Counted from the first letter of the stretch, positions 3,062-64,000 are shown. The stretch: 64,000 bases of DNA from a bacterium (GCA_021787205.1 JAJYME010000004.1:39063-103062), one strand, 5' to 3'. Numbers and translations: made by a program. The notes: a model not told the origin generated them from the sequence alone.

Positions 3062-4638
3062 AACTTTTTGAAAAAAAAGAAAAAAATCCAGGGGAGACCA
3101 ACCCCAAGATCAGTCTTGATGGTGTCAATCCGACTGCGATAAGCAAAACACTCAACCAGCTTTTTAAGACTGTCTTTCCCATTTCCTTACCGGGAGGACT
3201 GTCTGTCTCCGATTCTGGGTTCTATTACTCCCTTTTTGATGAGAACGGGAAGTTGGTCAGGGGCATAGCCCTAAAGACTCCGACGGGGGCCGTCGAGAAG
3301 GGCAGGATAAAGAACAACCAAGCCGTCGTTTCGGTTCTTAAGGAATTGGGAAGGATGGCGGGGATAGAATTTGGAAAAACTTCAGTAATATTATCCATCC
3401 CGGACAACCTGGTTTACTCCCAAGTAATGACCATTCCCGAGACCGCGGAAGCGGACTTAAAGGAAACGATAGAGCTGAATATAAAGACCATCTCGCCGAT
3501 GGATCTTACGAAAGCTTACTATGATTACGAAATCATAGGTCAGGCTGATACCGGTTTCGGGAAAGATATCCTGGTCTCATTCATCCAATCGGAGATGTCT
3601 GATGAATGGTCCCACGCTCTTAAAGAAGCCGGATTTGTTCCAGTGGCGGTCGAATTCAGCAGCTTCTCCTTAGCGAGAATGGCTGAGGGAATCGTCAAAC
3701 CGGACGAACTGGCGATGGTAATAGACATTTCGGTCGGAGGAATAAGCCAGATAGTTCTTAAGAACAGGAAAATGGCTTTTGACTATCTCGTTCCCTGGAC
3801 AACGATACAAGGAGCCGAAGAGAGAATCTCTTTTGACAGGATGAAGGAGGCTTTGTTTTCGGAAATAAACAAGGTTATTAATTTTTCCATCGGCAAATTC
3901 GGAGGAGAAATAAAAACCCTCATATTAAATTCGGCGGGAATGGTGGACGAGCTTCTGGCTGCTTTGAGCAGCGCCTTCCCGAAGCTTAAAATAATCAGAC
4001 TCGATCTTCCTGGTGGAAAAACGGCGGATTTTGCCGTTTCTATCGGGGCGGCTAAGAGAGGGGTCATCCCGAGGTCAAAGGACGAGATGATAGCTTTGAA
4101 CTCAGTAGTTGTCATAAAAGAGTTTGAAGAAATAAGAATGCTTTTAGCCATGCAATATTGGAGAAGGTTCGCCTTGGCGATGATGTCTTTCATATTGCTT
4201 ACGATAAGCGCCGGGGACTTGTTGGTAAATAAGTTCTTGTACATACCGGAACCGCCGGTAGATGTTTCTCAGACGGAGACGGTTGAATATAATAGGCTCA
4301 AAGCAAAGGCGGCTGAATTCAACTCACTTGTTTCTTCTATCTATTCCATCCGTTCCGAAGAGAACAAGATTACTGATTTCATTAATATGCTTAATGCGAC
4401 TTCGGGATCAGACATCCGTCTCACGAAGATCGCCTATCAGGGTCCAACCCAACCGGTGGTGATAAACGGGGTCGCCCCTTCCACCTCGGTGGTAAGCAAC
4501 TTCCAAACGCAGTTATCCAAAGTGAGCGGCATTTCAAACATTGATTTCCCGTTGGCGTCGGTCCAAGTCCTGCCATCGGGGGAGACGAGTTTCATCATGT
4601 CTTTCTCAGCGGTATTGGAAACATTCAACGCAAAATAA
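3058..4638 (+). CDS. PilM-like (actin-like ATPase fold) fused to a PilN-like transmembrane/coiled-coil segment
   Basis: The N-terminal 350 aa resemble PilM: a central TM helix AMQYWRRFALAMMSFILLTISAG is followed by a PilN-like C-terminal region. It overlaps the upstream gene by ATGA. Confidence 0.5.
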   Translation: MKLFEKKEKNPGETNPKISLDGVNPTAISKTLNQLFKTVFPISLPGGLSVSDSGFYYSLFDENGKLVRGIALKTPTGAVEKGRIKNNQAVVSVLKELGRMAGIEFGKTSVILSIPDNLVYSQVMTIPETAEADLKETIELNIKTISPMDLTKAYYDYEIIGQADTGFGKDILVSFIQSEMSDEWSHALKEAGFVPVAVEFSSFSLARMAEGIVKPDELAMVIDISVGGISQIVLKNRKMAFDYLVPWTTIQGAEERISFDRMKEALFSEINKVINFSIGKFGGEIKTLILNSAGMVDELLAALSSAFPKLKIIRLDLPGGKTADFAVSIGAAKRGVIPRSKDEMIALNSVVVIKEFEEIRMLLAMQYWRRFALAMMSFILLTISAGDLLVNKFLYIPEPPVDVSQTETVEYNRLKAKAAEFNSLVSSIYSIRSEENKITDFINMLNATSGSDIRLTKIAYQGPTQPVVINGVAPSTSVVSNFQTQLSKVSGISNIDFPLASVQVLPSGETSFIMSFSAVLETFNAK

Positions 4639-12346: not shown

Positions 12347-12426
12347 GAAAATATTCTAACAGTTATCAACCTTTGTAGCCAGGGGGAGACGACCCCCACA
12401 AATCTTGACTGTTTGGTTAATTGGGA

Positions 12427-12432
12427 TATAAT
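12427..12432 (+). promoter_or_regulatory. Candidate -10 element TATAAT upstream of the intron-containing tRNA
   Basis: gggatataatg lies 36 nt before the tRNA 5' end. Confidence 0.3.
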
Positions 12433-12467
12433 GATTAGGTACCTAAAAGAGGGTATAAATCGAATAT

Positions 12468-12768
12468 TCCCCTGTAGCTCAGTGGTAGAGCGGCTCGCTG
12501 TGGCTTAACGCAGCCTCCGAAAGTAATTTCGGTTGAATAACAAGGTGAATTCGGGGAAGTCCTGACCCATAAAGACAGGATAATCCCGAGCCAAGCTCTG
12601 ATAATTATCAGAGAAGGTGTAGAGACTATCTCGAAAGAGAGTACTTTTCCGACGAACGGAACGGGAAGCGCCTTGCATCCATTTTGGATGATGATATAGT
12701 CCATCCCTTTTAGTAATAGAAGGACAAGTGTAACGAGATGGTCGTAGGTTCGAATCCTACCGGGGGAG
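12468..12768 (+). tRNA. tRNA (anticodon GUU, Asn, after splicing) interrupted in the anticodon loop by a 229-nt group I intron; CCA is not encoded
   Basis: 5' exon (12468-12501): TCCCCTG TA GCTC AGTGGTA GAGC G GCTCG CUGU. 3' exon (12731-12768): UAA CGAGA TGGTC GTAGG TTCGAAT CCTAC CGGGGGA G. The 7-bp acceptor and the D and T arms are intact. Joining the exons gives the loop CUGUUAA. The overall sequence closely parallels E. coli tRNA-Asn as I recall it, including the G73 discriminator. Confidence 0.7.
12502..12730 (+). ncRNA. Group I intron (self-splicing type) within the tRNA anticodon loop
   Basis: The conserved group I elements appear in order. P-like: GAAUUCGGGGAAGUCC. Q-like: AUAAUCCCGAGCC (UUCGGG pairs with CCCGAG, P4). 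R-like: GUAGAGACUAUC. S-like: GAUAUAGUCC (GACUA pairs with UAGUC, P7). Other features: a P2 hairpin CCGAAA-GUAA-UUUCGG; a P6-like 8-bp hairpin CUCUGAUA/UAUCAGAG; a P1 pairing of exon GCUGU with intron GCAGC with U-G at the splice site; a terminal G at 12730; and a possible P10 UAA/UUA. Confidence 0.8.
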
Positions 12769-12775
12769 CATAATA

Positions 12776-50383: not shown

Positions 50384-51841
50384 ATGACTAATAATATGGA
50401 GATTCCAAGCGAAGTAAAAAAAGTCTTAGCCGAGCTTGCCGGGCGCGGATTCTTGGCGTATATCGTCGGAGGATCGGTGAGGGATTTATTGCTCAATAAG
50501 GCCCCGAGCGATTGGGACATCACCACCAATGCCTTGCCGGATGATGTGCTTTCTATCTTCCCGGATAGTTTTTATGAAAATGATTTTGGAACGGTCGGAG
50601 TAAAGACCGAATCAGATAATGACAACTTGAAGGTGATCGAGGTGACTACTTTCAGGAAGGAGGGCGGCTATTCTGATTTCCGTCATCCTGATAAAATCGA
50701 ATTTACCGAAAAGGTTGAGGATGACTTATCAAGAAGGGACTTTACCATAAACGCCATGGCGATGGATGCGAATGGGAACCTGATCGATGTTTATGACGGT
50801 CGGAAGGACTTGGACTTAAAAGTCGTAAGAGCTGTCGGCGATCCAATCGAAAGATTTGAAGAGGATGCCCTTCGCCTCATGAGGGCTATCAGGTTCGCGG
50901 CTCAACTCGGATTTGATATTGAGGCCAAGACGCTTGAGGCGATTAACCAAAAGGCTTACCTTATCCAGAATATCGCTAAAGAAAGAATCCAAGTGGAGTT
51001 TTCAAAAATCGTGATGTCGGATTCGGCGGCTTGGGGAATCGTTATGTTAGACAGTTGCGGATTGCTCCAATACATCGTTCCTGAATTAAGGGAGGGAATC
51101 GGGGTTACTCAGAACAAACATCATATCTACACTGTTTGGGAACATAATTTGAAAGTTTTCGATTATGCATGTAAAAACAGCCCCAAGTTGGAGGTCAGAT
51201 TGGCAGCTCTTTTTCACGATATAGCAAAGCCAAAAGTAAAAGCGGGGGAAGGGGAGAACTCAACTTTCTATAACCATGAAGTGATGGGAGCAAAGATGGC
51301 GAAAGAAATCTTGAGAAGACTGAAGTATTCGACGGAAGTTGTAGACTGCACGACTCATCTCGTAAGAAATCACATGTTTTATTATAACGTGGGAGAAGTG
51401 ACTGAGGCGGGAGTGAGAAGATTTATAAAAAGGGTGGGCGAGGAGACTCTTGATGATTTGATGGTTCTGCGTGAAGCGGACAGAATTGGCTCCGGAGTGC
51501 CGAAAGCCGTACCTTACAAGATGAGACATCTGAAGTTCATGATCGACAAAGTAAGAAGGGATCCGCTGACTCCGAAGGCTTTGAAACTGAATGGAGATGA
51601 GTTGATGAAGTTGCTCGGAATCGGCCCAGGAGTAAAGATCGGTTTCATCCTCAATATTCTTCTGGAGGAAGTCCTTGATGATCCTCAAAAGAATGACAAA
51701 GAGTATCTGGAGAAGAGGGCGATTGAGCTTAACGATTTTGATGATTCCAGGTTAAAGGAAATGTTCCAAACCGCAAGGAATAAGAAAGATGAGTTTGAAG
51801 CGGCGGCGGAGAAGGAGATAAAAAGAAAACATAAAGTTTAA
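50384..51841 (+). CDS. cca: CCA-adding tRNA nucleotidyltransferase with an HD domain
   Basis: The N-terminal pol-beta NTase motif GGSVRDLLL...DxD, the RAIRFAAQLGF head/neck region and the HD-domain HDIAKP are present. Confidence 0.8.
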   Translation: MTNNMEIPSEVKKVLAELAGRGFLAYIVGGSVRDLLLNKAPSDWDITTNALPDDVLSIFPDSFYENDFGTVGVKTESDNDNLKVIEVTTFRKEGGYSDFRHPDKIEFTEKVEDDLSRRDFTINAMAMDANGNLIDVYDGRKDLDLKVVRAVGDPIERFEEDALRLMRAIRFAAQLGFDIEAKTLEAINQKAYLIQNIAKERIQVEFSKIVMSDSAAWGIVMLDSCGLLQYIVPELREGIGVTQNKHHIYTVWEHNLKVFDYACKNSPKLEVRLAALFHDIAKPKVKAGEGENSTFYNHEVMGAKMAKEILRRLKYSTEVVDCTTHLVRNHMFYYNVGEVTEAGVRRFIKRVGEETLDDLMVLREADRIGSGVPKAVPYKMRHLKFMIDKVRRDPLTPKALKLNGDELMKLLGIGPGVKIGFILNILLEEVLDDPQKNDKEYLEKRAIELNDFDDSRLKEMFQTARNKKDEFEAAAEKEIKRKHKV

Positions 51842-51846
51842 TTTTA

Positions 51847-51916
51847 TTTTCGATTCTCGGCCTTACAAATAAAAATAACCCCCACCTTTATACGGGGGTT
51901 ATTCTATCTGTCGGGC
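51847..51916 (+). repeat. Copy A of a ~70-nt direct repeat (copy B at 52085-52154) containing a terminator hairpin
   Basis: The first 44 nt (ttttcgattctcggccttacaaataaaaataacccccaccttta) and the last 16 nt (attctatctgtcgggc) are identical. The hairpin 3' arm differs (tacgggggtt vs ggtggggatt), yet both versions still fold. Confidence 0.7.
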
Positions 51917-51962
51917 ATTTTGAGATGCCGAACGAAAACCGCCCACGTATGGGCGGTTTGGT

Positions 51963-51980
51963 TCTGTCGGGCTGCCGAGA
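51963..51980 (+). repeat. 18-bp direct repeat of the tRNA-Pro 3' end (tctgtcgggctgccgaga; second copy at 52145-52162 overlapping the tRNA)
   Basis: The copies are exact and 182 bp apart. Confidence 0.7.
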
Positions 51981-52148
51981 CGCTTCGCTATCTCACGTCG
52001 CGGAAGCGTCCGTTCCTGTGAAACCCACGGTTTCACAGACATCCTATACGGAAGGGATACTGAGTCTCCCTTCCGACCCATCCCTTTTCGATTCTCGGCC
52101 TTACAAATAAAAATAACCCCCACCTTTAGGTGGGGATTATTCTATCTG

Positions 52149-52219
52149 TCGGGCTGCCGAGAATCGAACTCGGTCTTTACGCACCCGAAGCGCACGTACT
52201 ACCGGTATACTACAGCCCG
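52149..52219 (-). tRNA. tRNA-Pro (anticodon CGG); CCA not encoded
   Basis: Reverse complement: CGGGCTG TA GTAT ACCGGTA GTAC G TGCGC TTCGGGT GCGTA AAGA CCGAG TTCGATT CTCGG CAGCCCG A. G37 is present. Confidence 0.8.
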
Positions 52220-56407: not shown

Positions 56408-57631
56408 ATGTCCCGCATCCGCGCCTTCACCCTAATAGAACTTCTCATAGTCATCGCGATCATCGCGATCTTGGGCTCTGCCACGGTCCTGGTCTTAAAC
56501 CCCATAGAGCTCATGAAGCAAGGAAGGGACGGAACAAGGATAAATGATACGGAGAACATAGAGAAGTCCATAAAGATGACCCTCTTCAACAATCCTTCCC
56601 TCATAGACTCCCTGTCTCCCACCAACATCTATCTCTCATTGCCGACAGGCTCCTGTCCGACCAACCCTCCCTCAGGCTATTCCTATGTCTGCAACGCCAC
56701 TTCTGCCAACATGAACAAAGTTGACGGCACAGGCTGGATCCCCTTGAGTCTCCAGAACATGGCAACGCTTCCAGTCGACCCCAATGCAGGGAACAACAAC
56801 GATTATTACGCCTTCGTGGCAGATCCCGTGACCAAGACGTTCGTGATCACTTCCTTGTTGGAATCTGAGAAACAAACCAAGCTTACGGCCGCAAAAGACG
56901 GCGGAACGGATCCGGGGAGATTTGAGAAGGGAAACCCGACACTTTGGGCGAATGCTTCAGGATTGATGGGATATTGGCCTATGGATGAGGGCATGGGAAC
57001 TACGACTGCGGATTTGTCAGGGAATGGTAATACTGGAAATGTAAGTGGAGCATGGACAATAGGGAAAATTGTGGGCGGAGTGAATTTTGATGGTTCTAGC
57101 AGCAATAACGTGGATGTAGCAAATTCTACATCTTTAAGTTTTGGAACTGGAAGTTTTTCTGTATCAGGCTGGGCATTTTATAGGAGTTATATATATCCAA
57201 GATCAAGTTTTATAATAAAAAAATCAGCCCAATGTTATTCAGATGGAGCTGCTAACGCTGGTTTTGATATAGGTCATTCGTATCATCCGGATGGTGCGGA
57301 TATATGCTTGAGGGATGCTAATAATGCTGCAATAAGAACAACTTTGACGTTTAATTCAAATCAAACTCCGCCAAATTTACAAAACAAATGGTCTCATTAC
57401 GTATTTGTTTTTAATAGAACAACTGGAAGAGTGATTGCTTATATTGATGGGATCCGTCAGTCTAATGAAATTAACATATCATCGATAACGGGAAGTGTTA
57501 ACAATAACAATTCTCTTACAATGGGAACTTTATATGGTTGGCAGACGGATGGAGTCATGGATGATATTCGGGTTTATAATCGTGCTTTGACGGCTGATGA
57601 GGTTGTTTCAATGTATAATGCAAACAAATAA
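56408..57631 (+). CDS. Type IV pilin-like protein with a C-terminal LamG/concanavalin-A-like lectin domain
   Basis: The N-terminus MSRIRAFTLIELLIVIAIIAILG is the canonical prepilin N-methylation motif. The C-terminus LTMGTLYGWQTDGVMDDIRVYNRALTADEV is typical of LamG-like jelly-roll domains. TGTTATAAT lies upstream. Confidence 0.65.
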   Translation: MSRIRAFTLIELLIVIAIIAILGSATVLVLNPIELMKQGRDGTRINDTENIEKSIKMTLFNNPSLIDSLSPTNIYLSLPTGSCPTNPPSGYSYVCNATSANMNKVDGTGWIPLSLQNMATLPVDPNAGNNNDYYAFVADPVTKTFVITSLLESEKQTKLTAAKDGGTDPGRFEKGNPTLWANASGLMGYWPMDEGMGTTTADLSGNGNTGNVSGAWTIGKIVGGVNFDGSSSNNVDVANSTSLSFGTGSFSVSGWAFYRSYIYPRSSFIIKKSAQCYSDGAANAGFDIGHSYHPDGADICLRDANNAAIRTTLTFNSNQTPPNLQNKWSHYVFVFNRTTGRVIAYIDGIRQSNEINISSITGSVNNNNSLTMGTLYGWQTDGVMDDIRVYNRALTADEVVSMYNANK

Positions 57632-60201: not shown

Positions 60202-60255
60202 TCCCGGTTTTTTTATTTAATCCCGGTGGATTTTTACCCACTTCTCCTATATACT

Positions 60256-60972
60256 AAGAACTCAATGAAACTTCGCATCCAAAAATATTTATCCGAACAG
60301 GGAATATGCTCCCGCCGTGAAGCGGAGGATCTTATAAGAAGGGGACTTATCTCAGTAAACGGCCAGGTGGTAAGGGAGATGGGTGTCCAAATCGATCCGG
60401 AGACGGACAGGGTCGAGCTTCTCGACCGGGGTCGGGAGGTTATGACGGAAAAGACGACAATCGCTTTGCATAAACCAAGAGGCTTGGTTTGCTCTCGAGA
60501 TTCTTCTGAAGGGGAAACCATATTTGATGCGTATCCTCAATTTCTTCCCTTGAACATCGTCGGTCGTCTCGATAAGGACAGTGAAGGATTGATTCTCATT
60601 TCCAATGATGGCGCCATCACGAAAGCGGTGACGGGGGATAGACACGTGACCGAGAAAGAATATGAAGTGACCGTCAGGGAAGACATCCCTTCGAATATGA
60701 AGCGCCTTTTTGAGGCCGGCATCGAGTTGGAGGACGGACCTACCCTTCCAGCAAAAGTGAGGTTGATAAGCCCGCATACCTTTGTCATCGTTATTCGTGA
60801 AGGGAGAAAACATCAAATACGCAGGATGTGCGAGTTTATGCGACTGACCGTAACGAAGCTGAAAAGGATAAGGATAGCCCATATTTCCCTTTCTAACCTC
60901 AGAGCCGGGGAATATCGCGTCTTAACCAAAGAGGAGGTGGCGCCGCTCAGGGAGGCGGGAAAGACGGCCTAG
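60256..60972 (+). CDS. Pseudouridine synthase, RsuA/RluB family (S4 domain + catalytic domain)
   Basis: The S4 domain LRIQKYLSEQGICSRREAEDLIRRGLISVNG is followed by the catalytic-Asp motif VGRLDKDSEGLILISNDG. Confidence 0.8.
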   Translation, partial: KNSMKLRIQKYLSEQGICSRREAEDLIRRGLISVNGQVVREMGVQIDPETDRVELLDRGREVMTEKTTIALHKPRGLVCSRDSSEGETIFDAYPQFLPLNIVGRLDKDSEGLILISNDGAITKAVTGDRHVTEKEYEVTVREDIPSNMKRLFEAGIELEDGPTLPAKVRLISPHTFVIVIREGRKHQIRRMCEFMRLTVTKLKRIRIAHISLSNLRAGEYRVLTKEEVAPLREAGKTA

Positions 60973-60999
60973 CTAGCCCTCGACACCCTCTTGACAGCT

Positions 61000-61491
61000 T
61001 TTAGCCTTGGGAATAGAATTAAATCAGAACCTCGAAAAGTATGTTCGTGGTCAATCTTTTATACAAGGGAGGGATGCTATGAGCTCAGGACCTGAAGGCA
61101 AGCCCAAGAGGCTTTCACCGATCCGGGTCGTCCTTGATGCCATTCGCGGTGTCAAATTCGCTCCAGCTCCATTTCCGTCTACCTTTTTGAACATCCCGTT
61201 TTGTTCCGTTCCAGCGAGTCCCGTCGGCCGTTCCGGCTTCGGGTCCCATCTGGCCGCTCATACCCGAGCGGTTAGGCCCCCCTAGCGGAGCCGTAAAGCC
61301 CAAAGACGCTTTCGGCTTCTGTCGGACCGTCAGGCCCCCGTAACGGAGCCCAAAACCAAGCGGTTTCACCCCGAGTAACTACGCAGTGAAAGGGAGGCGC
61401 CGACGCAACAAGGTACCAACGATCGTCCCAGAAAAAAAGAACCACACAACCGGGGCCCATTCTCATTCGAATGGGCCCTTTTCCTTTTCTT
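61000..61491 (+). ncRNA. Candidate structured non-coding RNA (identity undetermined): a GC-rich segment ending in a strong intrinsic terminator
   Basis: Local GC is clearly higher than in the flanks. The overlapping ORFs have implausible G/P/R-rich translations. An internal repeated motif AGGCCCCC(C)UAGCGGAGCC / AGGCCCCCGUAACGGAGCC is present. The terminator is GGGCCCATTC TCATTC GAATGGGCCC TTTTCCTTTTCTT (61453-61491). Confidence 0.3.
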
Positions 61492-61495
61492 GGAA

Positions 61496-61524
61496 TTGAA
61501 AAAGGAATGAAAAATTGATAATAT
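61496..61524 (+). promoter_or_regulatory. Promoter TTGAAA-17-TAATAT for tRNA-Ala
   Basis: The hexamers are at 61496-61501 and 61519-61524; the tRNA 5' end lies 13 nt downstream of the -10. Confidence 0.5.
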
Positions 61525-61537
61525 GAAGATAAAAAAC

Positions 61538-61608
61538 GGGCTCGTAGTTAAACGGCAGAACGGTACATTCGCATTGTACAGATAGGGGTTCAATTCCCCT
61601 CGAGTCCA
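61538..61608 (+). tRNA. tRNA-Ala (anticodon CGC) with the G3-U70 identity pair; CCA not encoded
   Basis: GGGCTCG TA GTT AAACGGCAG AAC G GTACA TTCGCAT TGTAC AGAT AGGGG TTCAATT CCCCT CGAGTCC A. Confidence 0.85.
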
Positions 61609-61640
61609 CAAATTGAACCGCCGGAAGCCCGCAATATTTT
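61587..61640 (+). repeat. Direct repeat copy 1: the tRNA-Ala 3' 22 nt plus ~32 nt of downstream flank (copy 2 at 61696-61750)
   Basis: ggt(t)caattcccctcgagtccacaaattgaaccgccggaagccc(g/a)caatat appears twice, 109 bp apart, in the same orientation. Confidence 0.75.
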
Positions 61641-61695
61641 TTTCATTGGCGGGCTGAGGCGCGGCCCGAAGGAAATCCGCAGGATTTACCTGAGA

Positions 61696-61750
61696 GGTCA
61701 ATTCCCCTCGAGTCCACAAATTGAACCGCCGGAAGCCCACAATATATTTT
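61696..61750 (+). repeat. Direct repeat copy 2 (a partial tRNA-Ala 3' end that is not a complete tRNA)
   Basis: See copy 1. The upstream sequence gcgggctgaggcgcggcccgaaggaaatccgcaggatttacc does not fold as a tRNA 5' half. Confidence 0.75.
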
Positions 61751-61771
61751 TATTGACAAGAAGTTTGAAAA

Positions 61772-62152
61772 GTGGCAGACTGGAATCAGTCCAATAAAAA
61801 AAGTGAGGTGTTTTATGTGGAACCTAGAAAATCTAAGTTCGGAAAAGGAGAGATTCTTTCCAGAGGATTATTTGCTGACGAAAAAGACAGGTTGACATCA
61901 AGGAGTATCCAAGGGTTTTTCAATTCGACGATCACTATCGGAAGCACCGGAGTGATGACCGTCACGTTGTCCATCCTAGGACACAAGCTATTCGGGGAAC
62001 TGGTTGATTTTTGCAACCAGTGGGGTCTTGCAATAGACAAGGCCACGCTGTCCGGCGAACTTCTGATTGTTAAGATCGCCTTCGTCGCCGGCGTGACATT
62101 TACTCTCGTCGGAATAATGAATATTCTGACAAAAGCAGACAAGAATAACTAA
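61772..62152 (+). CDS. Hypothetical protein with a C-terminal hydrophobic segment; the start codon (GTG) is uncertain
   Basis: It is an ORF only; no family was recognised. The ORF-track start at 61772 is a GTG, not an ATG, and an alternative in-frame GTG at 61811 lies 3 nt after a GAGGTG SD-like sequence. Confidence 0.3.
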   Translation: MADWNQSNKKSEVFYVEPRKSKFGKGEILSRGLFADEKDRLTSRSIQGFFNSTITIGSTGVMTVTLSILGHKLFGELVDFCNQWGLAIDKATLSGELLIVKIAFVAGVTFTLVGIMNILTKADKNN

Positions 62153-62182
62153 CGCTCCTGATAACACATAAAGCACGAAAGA

Positions 62183-62212
62183 TCATCCCGCCTAAAAAGG
62201 CGGGATTTTTTA
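62183..62212 (+). terminator. Rho-independent terminator
   Basis: ATCCCGCC TAAAAA GGCGGGAT TTTTTAT. Confidence 0.6.
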
Positions 62213-62324
62213 TGGGATTAAAATTGACTCAGTTTGGTTTTTTATGCTATTACGATCTTACTTCCACTGAAGATATTCAGTGAAGAGAACCTATAAAATA
62301 ATATATATAAGGAGATGTGATTAA

Positions 62325-62978
62325 ATGGTAAAAATGACAGACGGAAGGAAACGCAAAGTAGGATCCTTGAAACTAGGTGTGTCAGTATTGGCTTTTGACG
62401 AGTTAGGCAGGGTGATATTCTCCGCTTTCAAGAAGTCCGCTTCTTCGGGGGAGATAAGAACAGCTGTCGGTTGGCGGGGTTTTAGCGCCAACTATCTTCC
62501 GGAAGAGGTCATAATACAATTAAGCGTCGGTCCGAATAAGAGCTGCAGAGTGGAGGGGATAATCGATGTTTCTTCTGACAACTCTCCATTTGGCACGGCT
62601 GATTTCTTGCATATCTTATCTTGCAGACACAAGAAACTTAACGCCATATTCAGGTCGGAAACGAAGCTGAACGACTGGTTCTTTGGGTCGGTTTTCGACC
62701 CAAAATCAAAAGGGGAGACCGAGCTGAAAGCAGTAGTAGGAAGCGGCTTTACAAGAACTAAGGCGAGGTTGGCGGAGCTCCCAGTCAAGACCGGTCGGAA
62801 GGGAGATGCTAAGGAGATCTTATCCAAATGGCATATAAACATTCCTTTTGTCCTTAGAAGGAGCCAATCGGCTTATATTCCTCATCTTGCAGATACCATT
62901 GCTTCTGGTGACTTAAGAAAAGAAGAGGATCGCCAGTTGTTTGGTAAAAATATCAATACCACGGTCATTTTCTCATAA
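62325..62978 (+). CDS. Hypothetical protein (217 aa)
   Basis: AAGGAG lies 8 nt upstream of the ATG; no family was recognised. Confidence 0.45.
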   Translation: MVKMTDGRKRKVGSLKLGVSVLAFDELGRVIFSAFKKSASSGEIRTAVGWRGFSANYLPEEVIIQLSVGPNKSCRVEGIIDVSSDNSPFGTADFLHILSCRHKKLNAIFRSETKLNDWFFGSVFDPKSKGETELKAVVGSGFTRTKARLAELPVKTGRKGDAKEILSKWHINIPFVLRRSQSAYIPHLADTIASGDLRKEEDRQLFGKNINTTVIFS

Positions 62979-62998
62979 ATTACAGAATCTCAAAAAAT

Positions 62999-63030
62999 AG
63001 AGCCGATTAAAAACCGGCTCTTTTATTTTT
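62999..63030 (+). terminator. Rho-independent terminator
   Basis: AGAGCCG ATTAAAAA CGGCTCT TTTATTTTT. Confidence 0.55.
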
Positions 63031-63041
63031 ATAAAACATCA

Positions 63042-63071
63042 TTGACAAAAACGAATCAAAATTGTATTGTG
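63042..63071 (+). promoter_or_regulatory. Promoter-like TTGACA-18-TATTGT
   Basis: cATTGACAAAAACGaatc shares ATTGACAAAAACG with the consensus promoter at 40826. Confidence 0.35.
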
Positions 63072-63133
63072 GGAGGAATCCGCGAAGCGGATCAATCAGA
63101 TCTCTTAAAAAAGAATAAAGGAGTTGGTTTATT

Positions 63134-63808
63134 ATGTTGTTATTTCCGGAAAAGTTATCTTTCAAGGGAATGGGTCACGTTGATATGCCGTTAACGAGTG
63201 CCGATTTATATGACTTAGGTTGGGCGACAAGCGAAGCTTTTCGCATGGTTTTGTCCTCCAAAGAAATAATGAAGGCAACCGGTTTAGACGGCGTGATGCA
63301 GGCAGTGCCAAGTCAGATTGAAGTCGAAGTGGCCATCGCGACAAAAAGGAGATACCGGGTCGAACGCCTTAAGACTTCGAATTCGGTCTGGAACGACCAG
63401 CAGATCTTAGGAATAATCTCGTGTGAAAAATTCGGGCAACATCTCTCTGGGGATGTAGCGCGGATCAGGAGATGGTTTAACGGTTCGAGGCCGAGGGACG
63501 GAAGAAGCAGTTCTTTATCCCTTAAGGGAGCGATAGCTTCCGGCTTCATCTTTGATGATCTCAAAAAGATCAAGATATTTTTCAGCGCCTCGTCGCACGG
63601 GCAGAAAATATGCTCTTATTGCGAATGGAGACTGAGGGTATCTTTCGATCTGATTGAGGGGAAGTATGAAGTCAGGGAAACGATGGCGGTCGGTCAAGTG
63701 CTTCAATTGGAAGCCACTAAGACTGGATGCGCCGGATACATCAAGATGGAGAATCATGGAGAGATCGAAGCTGACGCGAAACTCAGAGTAGAGGAGGAGA
63801 TGAAATGA
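63134..63808 (+). CDS. Hypothetical protein (224 aa)
   Basis: AAAGGAG is present as an RBS; no family was recognised. Confidence 0.45.
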   Translation: MLLFPEKLSFKGMGHVDMPLTSADLYDLGWATSEAFRMVLSSKEIMKATGLDGVMQAVPSQIEVEVAIATKRRYRVERLKTSNSVWNDQQILGIISCEKFGQHLSGDVARIRRWFNGSRPRDGRSSSLSLKGAIASGFIFDDLKKIKIFFSASSHGQKICSYCEWRLRVSFDLIEGKYEVRETMAVGQVLQLEATKTGCAGYIKMENHGEIEADAKLRVEEEMK

Positions 63809-64000
63809 TAGGCGGAGAAAACGTTTTTTCGACTGAGCAACCGATGAGATTTAACTTGTCAGACAGAAAAGTGCAGGAACTTGGAAGTCTGCTTTATAAG
63901 GTCTTTAAGAAACTAATGGGGACACCAAGAACGGTGGCCGCATTCAATATGGCCCAAATATTGCCAAAAGCGATAAGGGTAAGGGTAATTGCAGCTACCG
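63805..64000 (+). CDS. Hypothetical protein, 3'-truncated by the window edge; translationally coupled to the upstream gene (ATGA overlap)
   Basis: GAGGAGGAG lies upstream of the ATG at 63805. Confidence 0.4.
   Translation, partial: MIGGENVFSTEQPMRFNLSDRKVQELGSLLYKVFKKLMGTPRTVAAFNMAQILPKAIRVRVIAAT

Follow-up and report, generated by a model that had tools for sequence, protein, structure and literature searches.

A direct repeat behind tRNA-Ala(CGC) in a Patescibacteria genome as a probable tandem echo of the tRNA end

The DNA analysed here, called the window throughout, is a stretch of 64,000 nt from a bacterial assembly (GCA_021787205.1, JAJYME010000004.1:39063-103062), the host of which belongs to the Patescibacteria (Paceibacteria), near Colwellbacteria; it also forms part of contig DAIBYJ010000006.1 in GCA_027424005.1. 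Close to its right end lies an intact tRNA-Ala(CGC) gene, which on reading has G3:U70 and A73 and does not encode CCA. The 3′ end of this gene and its flank are found a second time a short distance downstream, ahead of a small predicted membrane protein gene and a row of tandem paralogues (Table 1). The original prediction took this duplication for a possible footprint of site-specific integration or the edge of an island, with the genes beyond it as cargo. The present report concerns the repeat and its relation to similar structures, here called tRNA-end echo elements, behind other tRNA genes of Patescibacteria.

The duplication of the tRNA-Ala end and its flank is real. A repeat search aligns 61590-61643 with 61698-61751 at 52 of 54 identical positions (96%) and a spacing of 108, the first 41 nt being exact, while none of 100 shuffles yielded any match; the similarity extends to 61648/61755 if one 1-nt gap is allowed. 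The repeated block comprises the last 20 nt of the gene, from the second T-loop base, and 34-38 nt of flank. It therefore starts 3 nt later than originally described, contains 20 and not 22 nt of the tRNA, and has a spacing of 108 instead of 109. The stretch from T-loop to discriminator is copied perfectly (20/20) on the same strand at +108, within the range of 100-190 nt downstream adopted for such direct copies, and only 54 nt separate the two copies of the repeat. This spacer holds GAGGCGCGGCCCGAAGG (61656-61672), common to a second species (L108) described below, and a hairpin at 61671-61690; its GGGCTGAGG (61651-61659) is able to pair with CCTC(G)AGTCC, and a search for a further copy of the spacer found none anywhere. 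The inverted arm AATTGAACC is present again in copy 2, at 61719-61727. Copy 2 also contains a promoter-like site whose counterpart in copy 1 is weaker (TATTTT), one of the two substitutions between the copies changing TATTTT into TATATT. As had been claimed, the second copy is not a functional tRNA: over 61612-61780 Rfam gave no match at E<=10 and ARAGORN made no call. A decayed duplicate of the full tRNA is likewise ruled out, there being no covariance-model match and the spacer being unrelated to the 5′ part of tRNA-Ala (1824 of 2000 shuffles score as high, p ~0.9).

Table 1. Features of the tRNA-Ala locus and of the second echo instance, in window coordinates
Feature	Position	Strand	Basis or remark
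Second echo instance, behind tRNA-Pro(CGG) (52148-52219)	51847-52219	-	
Promoter-like site of tRNA-Ala, TTGAAA-17-TAATAT, TG-extended	61496-61524	+	Downstream of terminator 61452-61479
tRNA-Ala(CGC), intact	61538-61609	+	ARAGORN and Rfam, 62 bits
Repeat copy 1, T-loop to tRNA end (20 nt) plus 34-38 nt of flank	61590-61648	+	
Inverted arm AATTGAACC, reverse complement of tRNA GGTTCAATT (61587-61595)	61611-61619	+	9-nt inverted match, offset +1
Predicted hairpin AGCCCGC-16 nt-GCGGGCT, end of copy 1 into start of spacer	61626-61655	+	Predicted folds
GC-rich 54-nt spacer	61644-61697	+	
Repeat copy 2, tRNA-3′-end-like 20-mer (61698-61717) plus start of a putative second, truncated unit	61698-61755	+	
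Promoter-like site within copy 2, TTGAAC-16-TATATT	61721-61748	+	Motif match
Deletion junction, TTG microhomology (61753-61755), and ABC-F 3′ remnant of about 25 nt	61753-61780	+	Alignment with L003, L005
Small predicted membrane protein, 111 aa with GTG start (126 aa as called, with start at 61772)	61817-62152	+	76-78% identical in L003/L005
Paralogue 1 of a four-member tandem family, 217 aa	62325-62978	+	
Paralogue 2, 224 aa	63134-63808	+	
Paralogue 3, 224 aa	63805-64000	+	Extends to ~64479, past the window

The tRNA-Ala repeat is probably one case of an architecture that recurs behind other Patescibacteria tRNA genes. Behind the tRNA, its T-loop/3′ end is first copied in inverted orientation, GC-rich hairpins then extend over 55-90 nt, and a direct copy of the tRNA 3′ end closes the series, the arms always matching the adjacent tRNA. 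We observed it at the tRNA-Pro gene of the window and behind tRNA-Ala, tRNA-Lys and tRNA-Gly genes in five other Patescibacteria contigs. The frequency of such copies was surveyed over all 38 ARAGORN tRNAs in about 1.5 Mb of Patescibacteria loci, which had been fetched for other reasons, by scoring any copy of at least 10 nt of a tRNA's own last 26 nt within 300 nt downstream. Direct copies of their own tail follow 6 of the 38 tRNAs and inverted copies follow 7, as compared with 10/1118 and 24/1118 when tRNAs and flanks are mismatched (Fisher 5e-6 and 3.5e-5, respectively). The upstream regions hold no direct copies and two inverted ones, both from neighbouring tRNA genes.

The second instance, behind tRNA-Pro(CGG), is fuller than that behind tRNA-Ala. 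Along the minus strand, a terminator is followed by a perfect inverted arm of the T-loop/T-stem, 13 nt long (+ strand 52087-52099) where at least 10 nt are asked of such an arm, then by about 105 nt of hairpins and by an 18-nt exact direct copy of the tRNA end (51963-51980) with its own terminator. A second copy of tRNA end, terminator and inverted arm, 70 nt long and 94% identical, occupies 51847-51916, and this last copy abuts the stop codon of a convergent gene ending at 51841. A report on E. coli rRNA operons describes small RNA genes between dual terminators (PMC8144298). As at this tRNA-Pro, a stable-RNA transcription unit there ends in a short structured stretch with a terminator on either side. 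Like those small RNAs, the tRNA-Pro segment could come from read-through; a difference is that the E. coli segments contain no copies of a tRNA end.

A match to the tRNA-Ala repeat comes from another species (L108/L102), in which the same arrangement stands behind tRNA-Ala(CGC) in a different genomic context; a scan of JGI metagenomes with the 3′ 20-mer of tRNA-Ala had returned 17 contigs. The order there is tRNA-Ala(CGC), terminator, GGAATTGAACC, about 60 nt of GC-rich DNA and a 21/22 copy from T-loop to tRNA end, and GGAATTGAACC in L108 is the exact reverse complement of the tRNA's GGTTCAATTCC. The inter-repeat sequences of the window and L108 have two collinear blocks in common, AATTGAACC(T)GCCGGA and GAGGCGCGG(C/T)CCGA(A/G)G, the best of which was equalled in 1 of 2000 shuffles. 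A conserved structured RNA common to the two was considered and rejected, since the hairpin 61671-61690 is not conserved and the fold z-scores are weak. A hairpin with a promoter-like motif beside copy 2 of L108 was also discarded as part of the element, being a dispersed intergenic repeat. This dispersed repeat, in which the hairpin TTCCCCCTTT.TAAGGGGGAA is followed by CAAAGGGGTAT, is found in L108 at 675-696, 966-1003 and 4578-4615, one copy preceding the tRNA, one following the echo element and one lying 3.6 kb away, and resembles a terminator/promoter cassette shared within that genome.

Further cases are two tRNA-Lys genes (L056, L066) and the tRNA-Gly(TCC) and tRNA-Gly(GCC) genes of L095, while a tRNA-Ala in L046 is followed by the inverted arm only. 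The inverted arm is always a perfect complement of the tRNA itself, which it matches better than it matches the direct copy. In most cases the intrinsic terminator of the tRNA lies between the tRNA and the inverted arm, so that a long palindrome is centred on this terminator. The inverted arms of L056, L095 and L066 are interrupted, where the acceptor/T-stem junction would be, by a hairpin of 9 bp with a CTGC loop. This hairpin does not differ between tRNA-Lys and tRNA-Gly, and the version in L066 has three compensatory pairs. Predicted fold z-scores are -4.7 for L056, -4.8 for L095 and -3.1 for the tRNA-Pro of the window, and weak for its tRNA-Ala and for L108. No Rfam family matches any of the echo elements, and a narrow literature search found no description of them.

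Two of these contigs have peculiarities of their own. L095 (GCA_037975565.1, JBBCBH010001573.1) has five tRNA genes in the 11 kb between 6300 and 17400, at least three of which are followed by a terminator and then an inverted tRNA-end arm. Protein genes in L095 are often called in pieces, such as an ABC-F of 137 + 30 + 216 aa and a split CCA-adding/PolyA polymerase, which suggests a frameshift-prone assembly or pseudogenisation. In L066, the region 12378-12700 behind tRNA-Lys(TTT) has two successive inverted arms, of which the first bears the hairpin with the CTGC loop while the second is exactly reverse-complementary over 18 nt, and contains a tandem internal repeat (GGAGGTCAGCAGAGCT twice) as well as the phrase GAAAGTCACCCGCGACCGTA twice, so that it looks compound or nested.

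A comparison with relatives explains where copy 2 stops. The close relatives are short Logan contigs (L003-L007, 55-78% protein identity), in which the gene cluster of the window is found again, with a uracil-DNA glycosylase gene (UDG, 83% identical) after it. Ahead of the cluster these contigs have the 3′ end of a gene for an ABC-F ATPase, the stop codon of which lies 38 nt upstream of the small gene. The DNA homology of the window with L003/L005 starts at TTGACAA (61754), 2-3 nt past copy 2, and this start falls inside the last 25 nt of the ABC-F gene, so that the window retains about 25 nt of the ABC-F coding end, now non-coding. With the junction marked by a slash, copy 1 reads ...CATTG/GCGG, L003 ...GTTTG/ACAA and the window ...TATTG/ACAA. 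Because the homology with the relatives begins just past copy 2 and inside the ABC-F end, the alignment shows the right end of copy 2 to be a deletion junction with a 3-nt microhomology, the ABC-F gene apparently having been removed, and not an attachment-site boundary. No ABC-F gene was found in the window or in L001, which runs 10 kb past the window end (window coordinate = L001 + 53133), and a protein search for an orthologue elsewhere in the genome gave no match from its contigs; the nearest match in this search, in L095, is not syntenic.

The closest relative with a readable tRNA-Ala flank is L088, from the same sample as L003. Its RluA gene (85% identical) is followed by about 570 nt of non-coding DNA and by a tRNA-Ala that is 100% identical to that of the window, with a different flank and no repeat. 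At about 50 nt downstream of this tRNA-Ala stands ATGATTGTCGTAAAGAAC (ATG), which is probably the ABC-F start. Given this flank and the ABC-F end that precedes the cluster in the other relatives, the ancestral order was most likely tRNA-Ala / ABC-F / cluster / UDG, with ABC-F deleted in the window lineage. More distant, Colwellbacteria-like genomes keep the order 2-hydroxyacid dehydrogenase / 138-aa open reading frame (ORF; p138) / 69-aa ORF (p69) / tRNA-Ala(CGC) / variable interval / UDG / CapA / mechanosensitive channel, the interval from tRNA-Ala to UDG being 110 nt in L055, 0.8 kb in L050 (UppS) and 7.9 kb of housekeeping genes in L046. The distant relatives lack the gene cluster, and no direct copy of the tRNA-Ala 3′ end was seen in L055, L050 or L046 among the matches listed. 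RluA and a 565-nt non-coding stretch have moved upstream of tRNA-Ala only in the narrow clade of the window. Judged from this synteny, the surroundings of tRNA-Ala are a zone of rearrangement, and the gene cluster is a resident, lineage-specific part of the chromosome, neither core nor cargo bounded by the repeat.

On the upstream side of the gene (60226-61537), RluA, an RluA-type pseudouridine synthase, adjoins p69 and tRNA-Ala only in the window's narrow clade (L088-L090), a second rearrangement at tRNA-Ala. In the genomes compared with RluA <=78% identical (L091-L094, L224-L227) the order is cupredoxin / FMN reductase / RluA / hydrolase / radical SAM, and more distant RluA homologues were set aside as a guide to the tRNA flank, their genomic context being another and uninformative. 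Between RluA and tRNA-Ala lies a separate transcription unit on the plus strand (60991-61485), with a strong promoter-like site at 60991-61019 (11/12 matches) and no matching Rfam family. It includes a small ORF of 68 aa (61079-61285). The N-terminus of this ORF, MS.GPEGKP.R, has a counterpart in L089, and both L088 and L089 have one to its C-terminus, ...R(A/S)V(R/Y)PP. The ORF is followed by about 170 nt of GC-rich DNA in which TAGGCCCCC..AGCGGAGCC occurs twice as an internal repeat, and then by a clean terminator at 61452-61479.

We read the 54-nt repeat as about 1.35 tandem units of a tRNA-end echo element of about 108 nt, directly behind tRNA-Ala(CGC), and not as an island edge, and assign this reading a probability of about 0.55. 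One unit (61610-61717) would comprise the inverted T-stem/T-loop motif AATTGAACC, the hairpin 61626-61655, a block rich in GC that contains the hairpin 61671-61690, and finally the copy of the tRNA end; the next would begin at once, at 61718, and would have been cut at about 61755 by the illegitimate deletion at the TTG microhomology that removed ABC-F. The 34 nt originally regarded as non-tRNA flank would then be the start of the second unit, because the sequence after 61717 repeats the start of the unit. The copies may have arisen locally by copy-choice, through fold-back or template switching at the T-arm and terminator hairpins, while slippage or unequal exchange between tRNA-end copies would multiply the units and gene conversion with the tRNA would then keep copies and arms matched. 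By analogy with known arrays, we give this origin by local copy-choice and unequal exchange roughly even odds. Copy 2 may also supply the sole promoter-like site before a cluster that lost its upstream gene. In the relatives ABC-F leaves no space for a promoter ahead of the cluster, and this site is therefore the obvious candidate for driving the cluster once ABC-F had been deleted.

The closest precedent, by analogy, is the 178-bp repeat array behind E. coli tyrV/tyrT. The tyrV 3′ region has three copies at a period of 178, of which the tRNA-proximal one overlaps the last 19 nt of tyrV, with rttR/tpr annotated; every unit of the array holds the 19 nt that end tRNA-Tyr, and rttR is a small RNA. 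These tandem 178-bp units are thought to arise by copy-choice or unequal exchange between copies of the tRNA end. As at tyrT/tyrV, the units here run head to tail from the adjacent tRNA 3′ end into its trailer, directly downstream and free of mobile-element genes; counted from the last ~20 nt of the tRNA, unit 1 spans 61590-61697 and unit 2 starts at 61698. The E. coli units differ in being longer, in encoding RttR/Tpr and in having no inverted copy of the tRNA end, whereas the patescibacterial elements add an inverted arm and GC-rich hairpins, and the array here amounts to about 1.35 units, short of two complete ones, the second stopping after 58 nt at the deletion junction. Tandem inversion duplications and quasi-palindrome template switching are known in bacteria, in particular from the Salmonella model of tandem inversion duplications. 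That model resembles the present case in its direct, inverted and direct copies seeded at short hairpins, the palindrome centres here being the T-arm and the intrinsic terminator. The Salmonella duplications, however, are large, unstable, selected intermediates, whereas the copies here are 10-25 nt long, fixed and recurrent at tRNA ends, and three of the cases carry a conserved hairpin module.

The readings that compete with a tandem echo have to be weighed against the same evidence. A one-off tandem duplication of 108 bp by replication slippage, followed by the deletion, functionless and unrelated to other loci, would make any likeness to these a coincidence or a matter of shared ancestry of tRNA trailers. 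The period of 108, the 52/54 identity of copies that are in register, the microhomology at the deletion junction, the weak structure scores at tRNA-Ala and the tandem tRNA-end/trailer units behind E. coli tyrV all fit it. Such a duplication, which the original prediction had held in reserve, does come close to the proximate cause; as a bare single event it is rather unlikely in view of loci elsewhere that look alike, with the spacer/T-loop junction of L108 at the same place and a related spacer sequence, the same architecture at the tRNA-Pro of the window, the enrichment of own-tail copies downstream of tRNAs and a hairpin module conserved with covariation. That the repeat was made by the metagenome assembler is hardly credible. 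Both junctions would require the unique 54-nt spacer, similar structures occur in unrelated assemblies, and an independent Logan assembly breaks exactly where the exact core of 41 nt stops, just as a genuine repeat that exceeds k=31 would make it do. Its contig L002 starts at position 61709 of the window, the first unique 31-mer after that core, which makes an artefact unlikely. In favour of an artefact, the source is a metagenome-assembled genome, known here at the level of assemblies, and this also counts among the points that weigh against the echo reading. The others are as follows. About eight echo instances are known, from six genomes and all in the loci fetched for other reasons. The inverted arm at tRNA-Ala (AATTGAACC) has only 9 nt, as compared with 11-18 nt elsewhere, and the fold of the element is no better than that of shuffles (z -1.5 to -1.8), so that the membership of tRNA-Ala rests on its architecture and its likeness to L108. 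One and the same 24-nt hairpin module stands behind different tRNAs of different genomes, by which a purely local copy-choice is strained. Because L088, the closest relative, has no element, turnover must be fast, and this would also fit a mobile or integrative origin. Finally, tyrosine integrases that target tRNA genes classically cross over in the T-loop, and it is there that the repeat begins.

The last point leads to integration. Like the attL/attR of tRNA-targeting elements, for which Williams reportedly set out sublocation classes in 2002, the feature is a direct repeat of the 3′ part of a tRNA (54 nt, 52/54) from the T-loop onwards, in which a complete copy of the tRNA is paired with a partial one. 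It differs in having only 54 nt between the copies, no integrase, cargo or attP-bearing partner, an extra inverted copy and a right boundary that is a deletion junction. The footprint claimed in the original prediction, with the downstream genes as its cargo, fails on these differences and on the missing third copy, and the feature is not an attachment-site pair or island edge. No recombinase Pfam domain was found on the genes from position 53 kb of the window to 10 kb past its end, a low-sensitivity tblastn search with a patescibacterial tyrosine integrase gave nothing in the window or L001, and no third copy of the repeat exists in the window and the next 10 kb (74 kb). A third copy upstream of UDG was rejected, as that intergenic region holds a terminator and a promoter only. 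An attP on a phage or plasmid was dismissed after three IMG/VR scans: no contig has the flank or the 3′ 21-mer of the tRNA, and all 111 viral matches to the spacer motif look like chance. Translations of the spacer by eye, on both strands and for window versus L108, had nothing in common and gave no support to a coding remnant such as an ABC-F N-terminus or the end of an integrase. An empty site, which had been suggested as a check, is not what the relatives offer: L088 has no repeat, yet L003-L007 from the same samples carry the cluster, and UDG is still its right-hand neighbour. What stands of the island-edge idea is that the interval from tRNA-Ala to UDG is variable (110 nt to 7.9 kb); the cluster is not mobile cargo. 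A scar could be all that is left, an element having entered the T-loop of tRNA-Ala(CGC) to give attL (copy 1) and attR (copy 2) and having been mostly deleted, with about 88 nt of attP arms remaining and a related scar in L108. We consider this quite unlikely, although the identity block that starts in the T-loop and continues through the tRNA end, the variable interval beside the gene and the situation in L108, whose 22-nt repeat is confined to the tRNA end and encloses a related 123-nt insert in a different genomic context, agree with it. Partial tRNA genes are also commonly the attR of integrative elements (PMC9897764). A scar leaves unexplained the tRNA-matched inverted copies (7/38), the start of another unit after copy 2 and the right boundary at a deletion junction, in addition to the missing integrase, third copy and viral partner.

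The genes downstream, which the tandem echo reading regards as resident, have no recognisable family, as had been noted: no Pfam, PHROG or PADLOC family was found for these ORFs. The first of them is present, although not with the predicted start at 61772; the comparison with L003 makes GTG at 61817 the most likely start. The four tandem paralogues span 62325-64000 of the window and 10672-12083 of L001, the fourth (203 aa) lying past the window end, and are followed in L001 by UDG, a CapA-like protein, a mechanosensitive-channel protein, 23S and 5S rRNA, a methyltransferase and FtsW. They are 20-29% identical to one another and have the motifs ILSC, RWFxGS and CEWx(I/L)x(V/I)PFxL in common. 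The family is very small, with 6 clusters among 5.8 billion proteins; an exhaustive profile search gave 11 representatives, one of them spurious, namely P0014 (1670 aa), which was dismissed as a repeat-driven match. One paralogue has a weak PADLOC 'homing endonuclease' match (E 0.002), and searches for a viral match and against PDB sequences found none. An AlphaFold model of the 217-aa paralogue, made from 13 sequences (predicted local distance difference test 80, predicted template modelling score 0.79), and a weak Foldseek agreement predict a glutathione-synthetase-like fold of the ATP-grasp type, resembling half of such a ligase. In the model the similarity to glutathione synthetase and glutathionylspermidine synthetase is one of fold and not of family membership, the paralogues being 203-224 aa long, about half of the 370-600 aa of these enzymes, and without a Pfam or PDB sequence match.

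Elsewhere in the window, a tRNA-Asn(GTT) gene at about 12470-12770 (+), missed by ARAGORN, has a group I intron (Rfam RF00028, 78.8 bits, 12409-12723) between anticodon positions 35 and 36 and exons at about 12470-12503 and 12731-12770. The intron site matches the insertion site reported for Patescibacteria (PMC13011429). A gene at 56408-57631 (+) encodes a type IV pilin-like protein with an N-terminal methylation motif, fused to a LamG/laminin-G domain. Surface proteins of Patescibacteria typically show fusions of this kind.

Annotation routinely takes a duplicated tRNA 3′ end for the border of an island, and here such a reading would mislabel a resident, lineage-specific cluster as mobile cargo. 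If the promoter-like site of copy 2 acts as supposed, the locus would also be a clean example of promoter replacement following gene deletion. The conserved, covarying stub hairpin and the arm boundaries at the tRNA terminus suggest something beyond a mutational by-product and could point to an RNA that mimics the top half of a tRNA or to a small mobile unit. That the element works as an RNA, for instance as a helix mimicking the acceptor/T top half, is a tentative possibility. Somewhat more speculatively, Patescibacteria may encode, beside some of their tRNAs, a family of RNAs of about 110-150 nt whose arms fold into a minihelix mimic of the tRNA top half. The 5′ arm of such an RNA would be the complement, and the 3′ arm the copy, of the 3′ strand of the acceptor/T-stem of the neighbouring tRNA, and the place of the conserved stub hairpin would be precisely the acceptor/T junction, from which the body of a real tRNA branches. 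The G3:U70 wobble is read by alanyl-tRNA synthetase, and at tRNA-Ala the candidate 5′ strand, GGGCU..., would keep it. If this is true, the RNAs could serve as decoys or sensors, or guide processing, for enzymes with a specificity for tRNA ends, namely RNase P, RNase Z, the CCA-adding enzyme, synthetases and toxins. The elements could instead be mobile units in miniature, with arms rebuilt from the target tRNA. Among the patescibacterial tRNA genes sampled, about one in six is followed by the echo, in genomes that are otherwise ruthlessly reduced. Such a recurrence suggests one of two things, a mutational process peculiar to the hairpins of tRNA terminators or a class of structured, tRNA-matched elements that has yet to be described.

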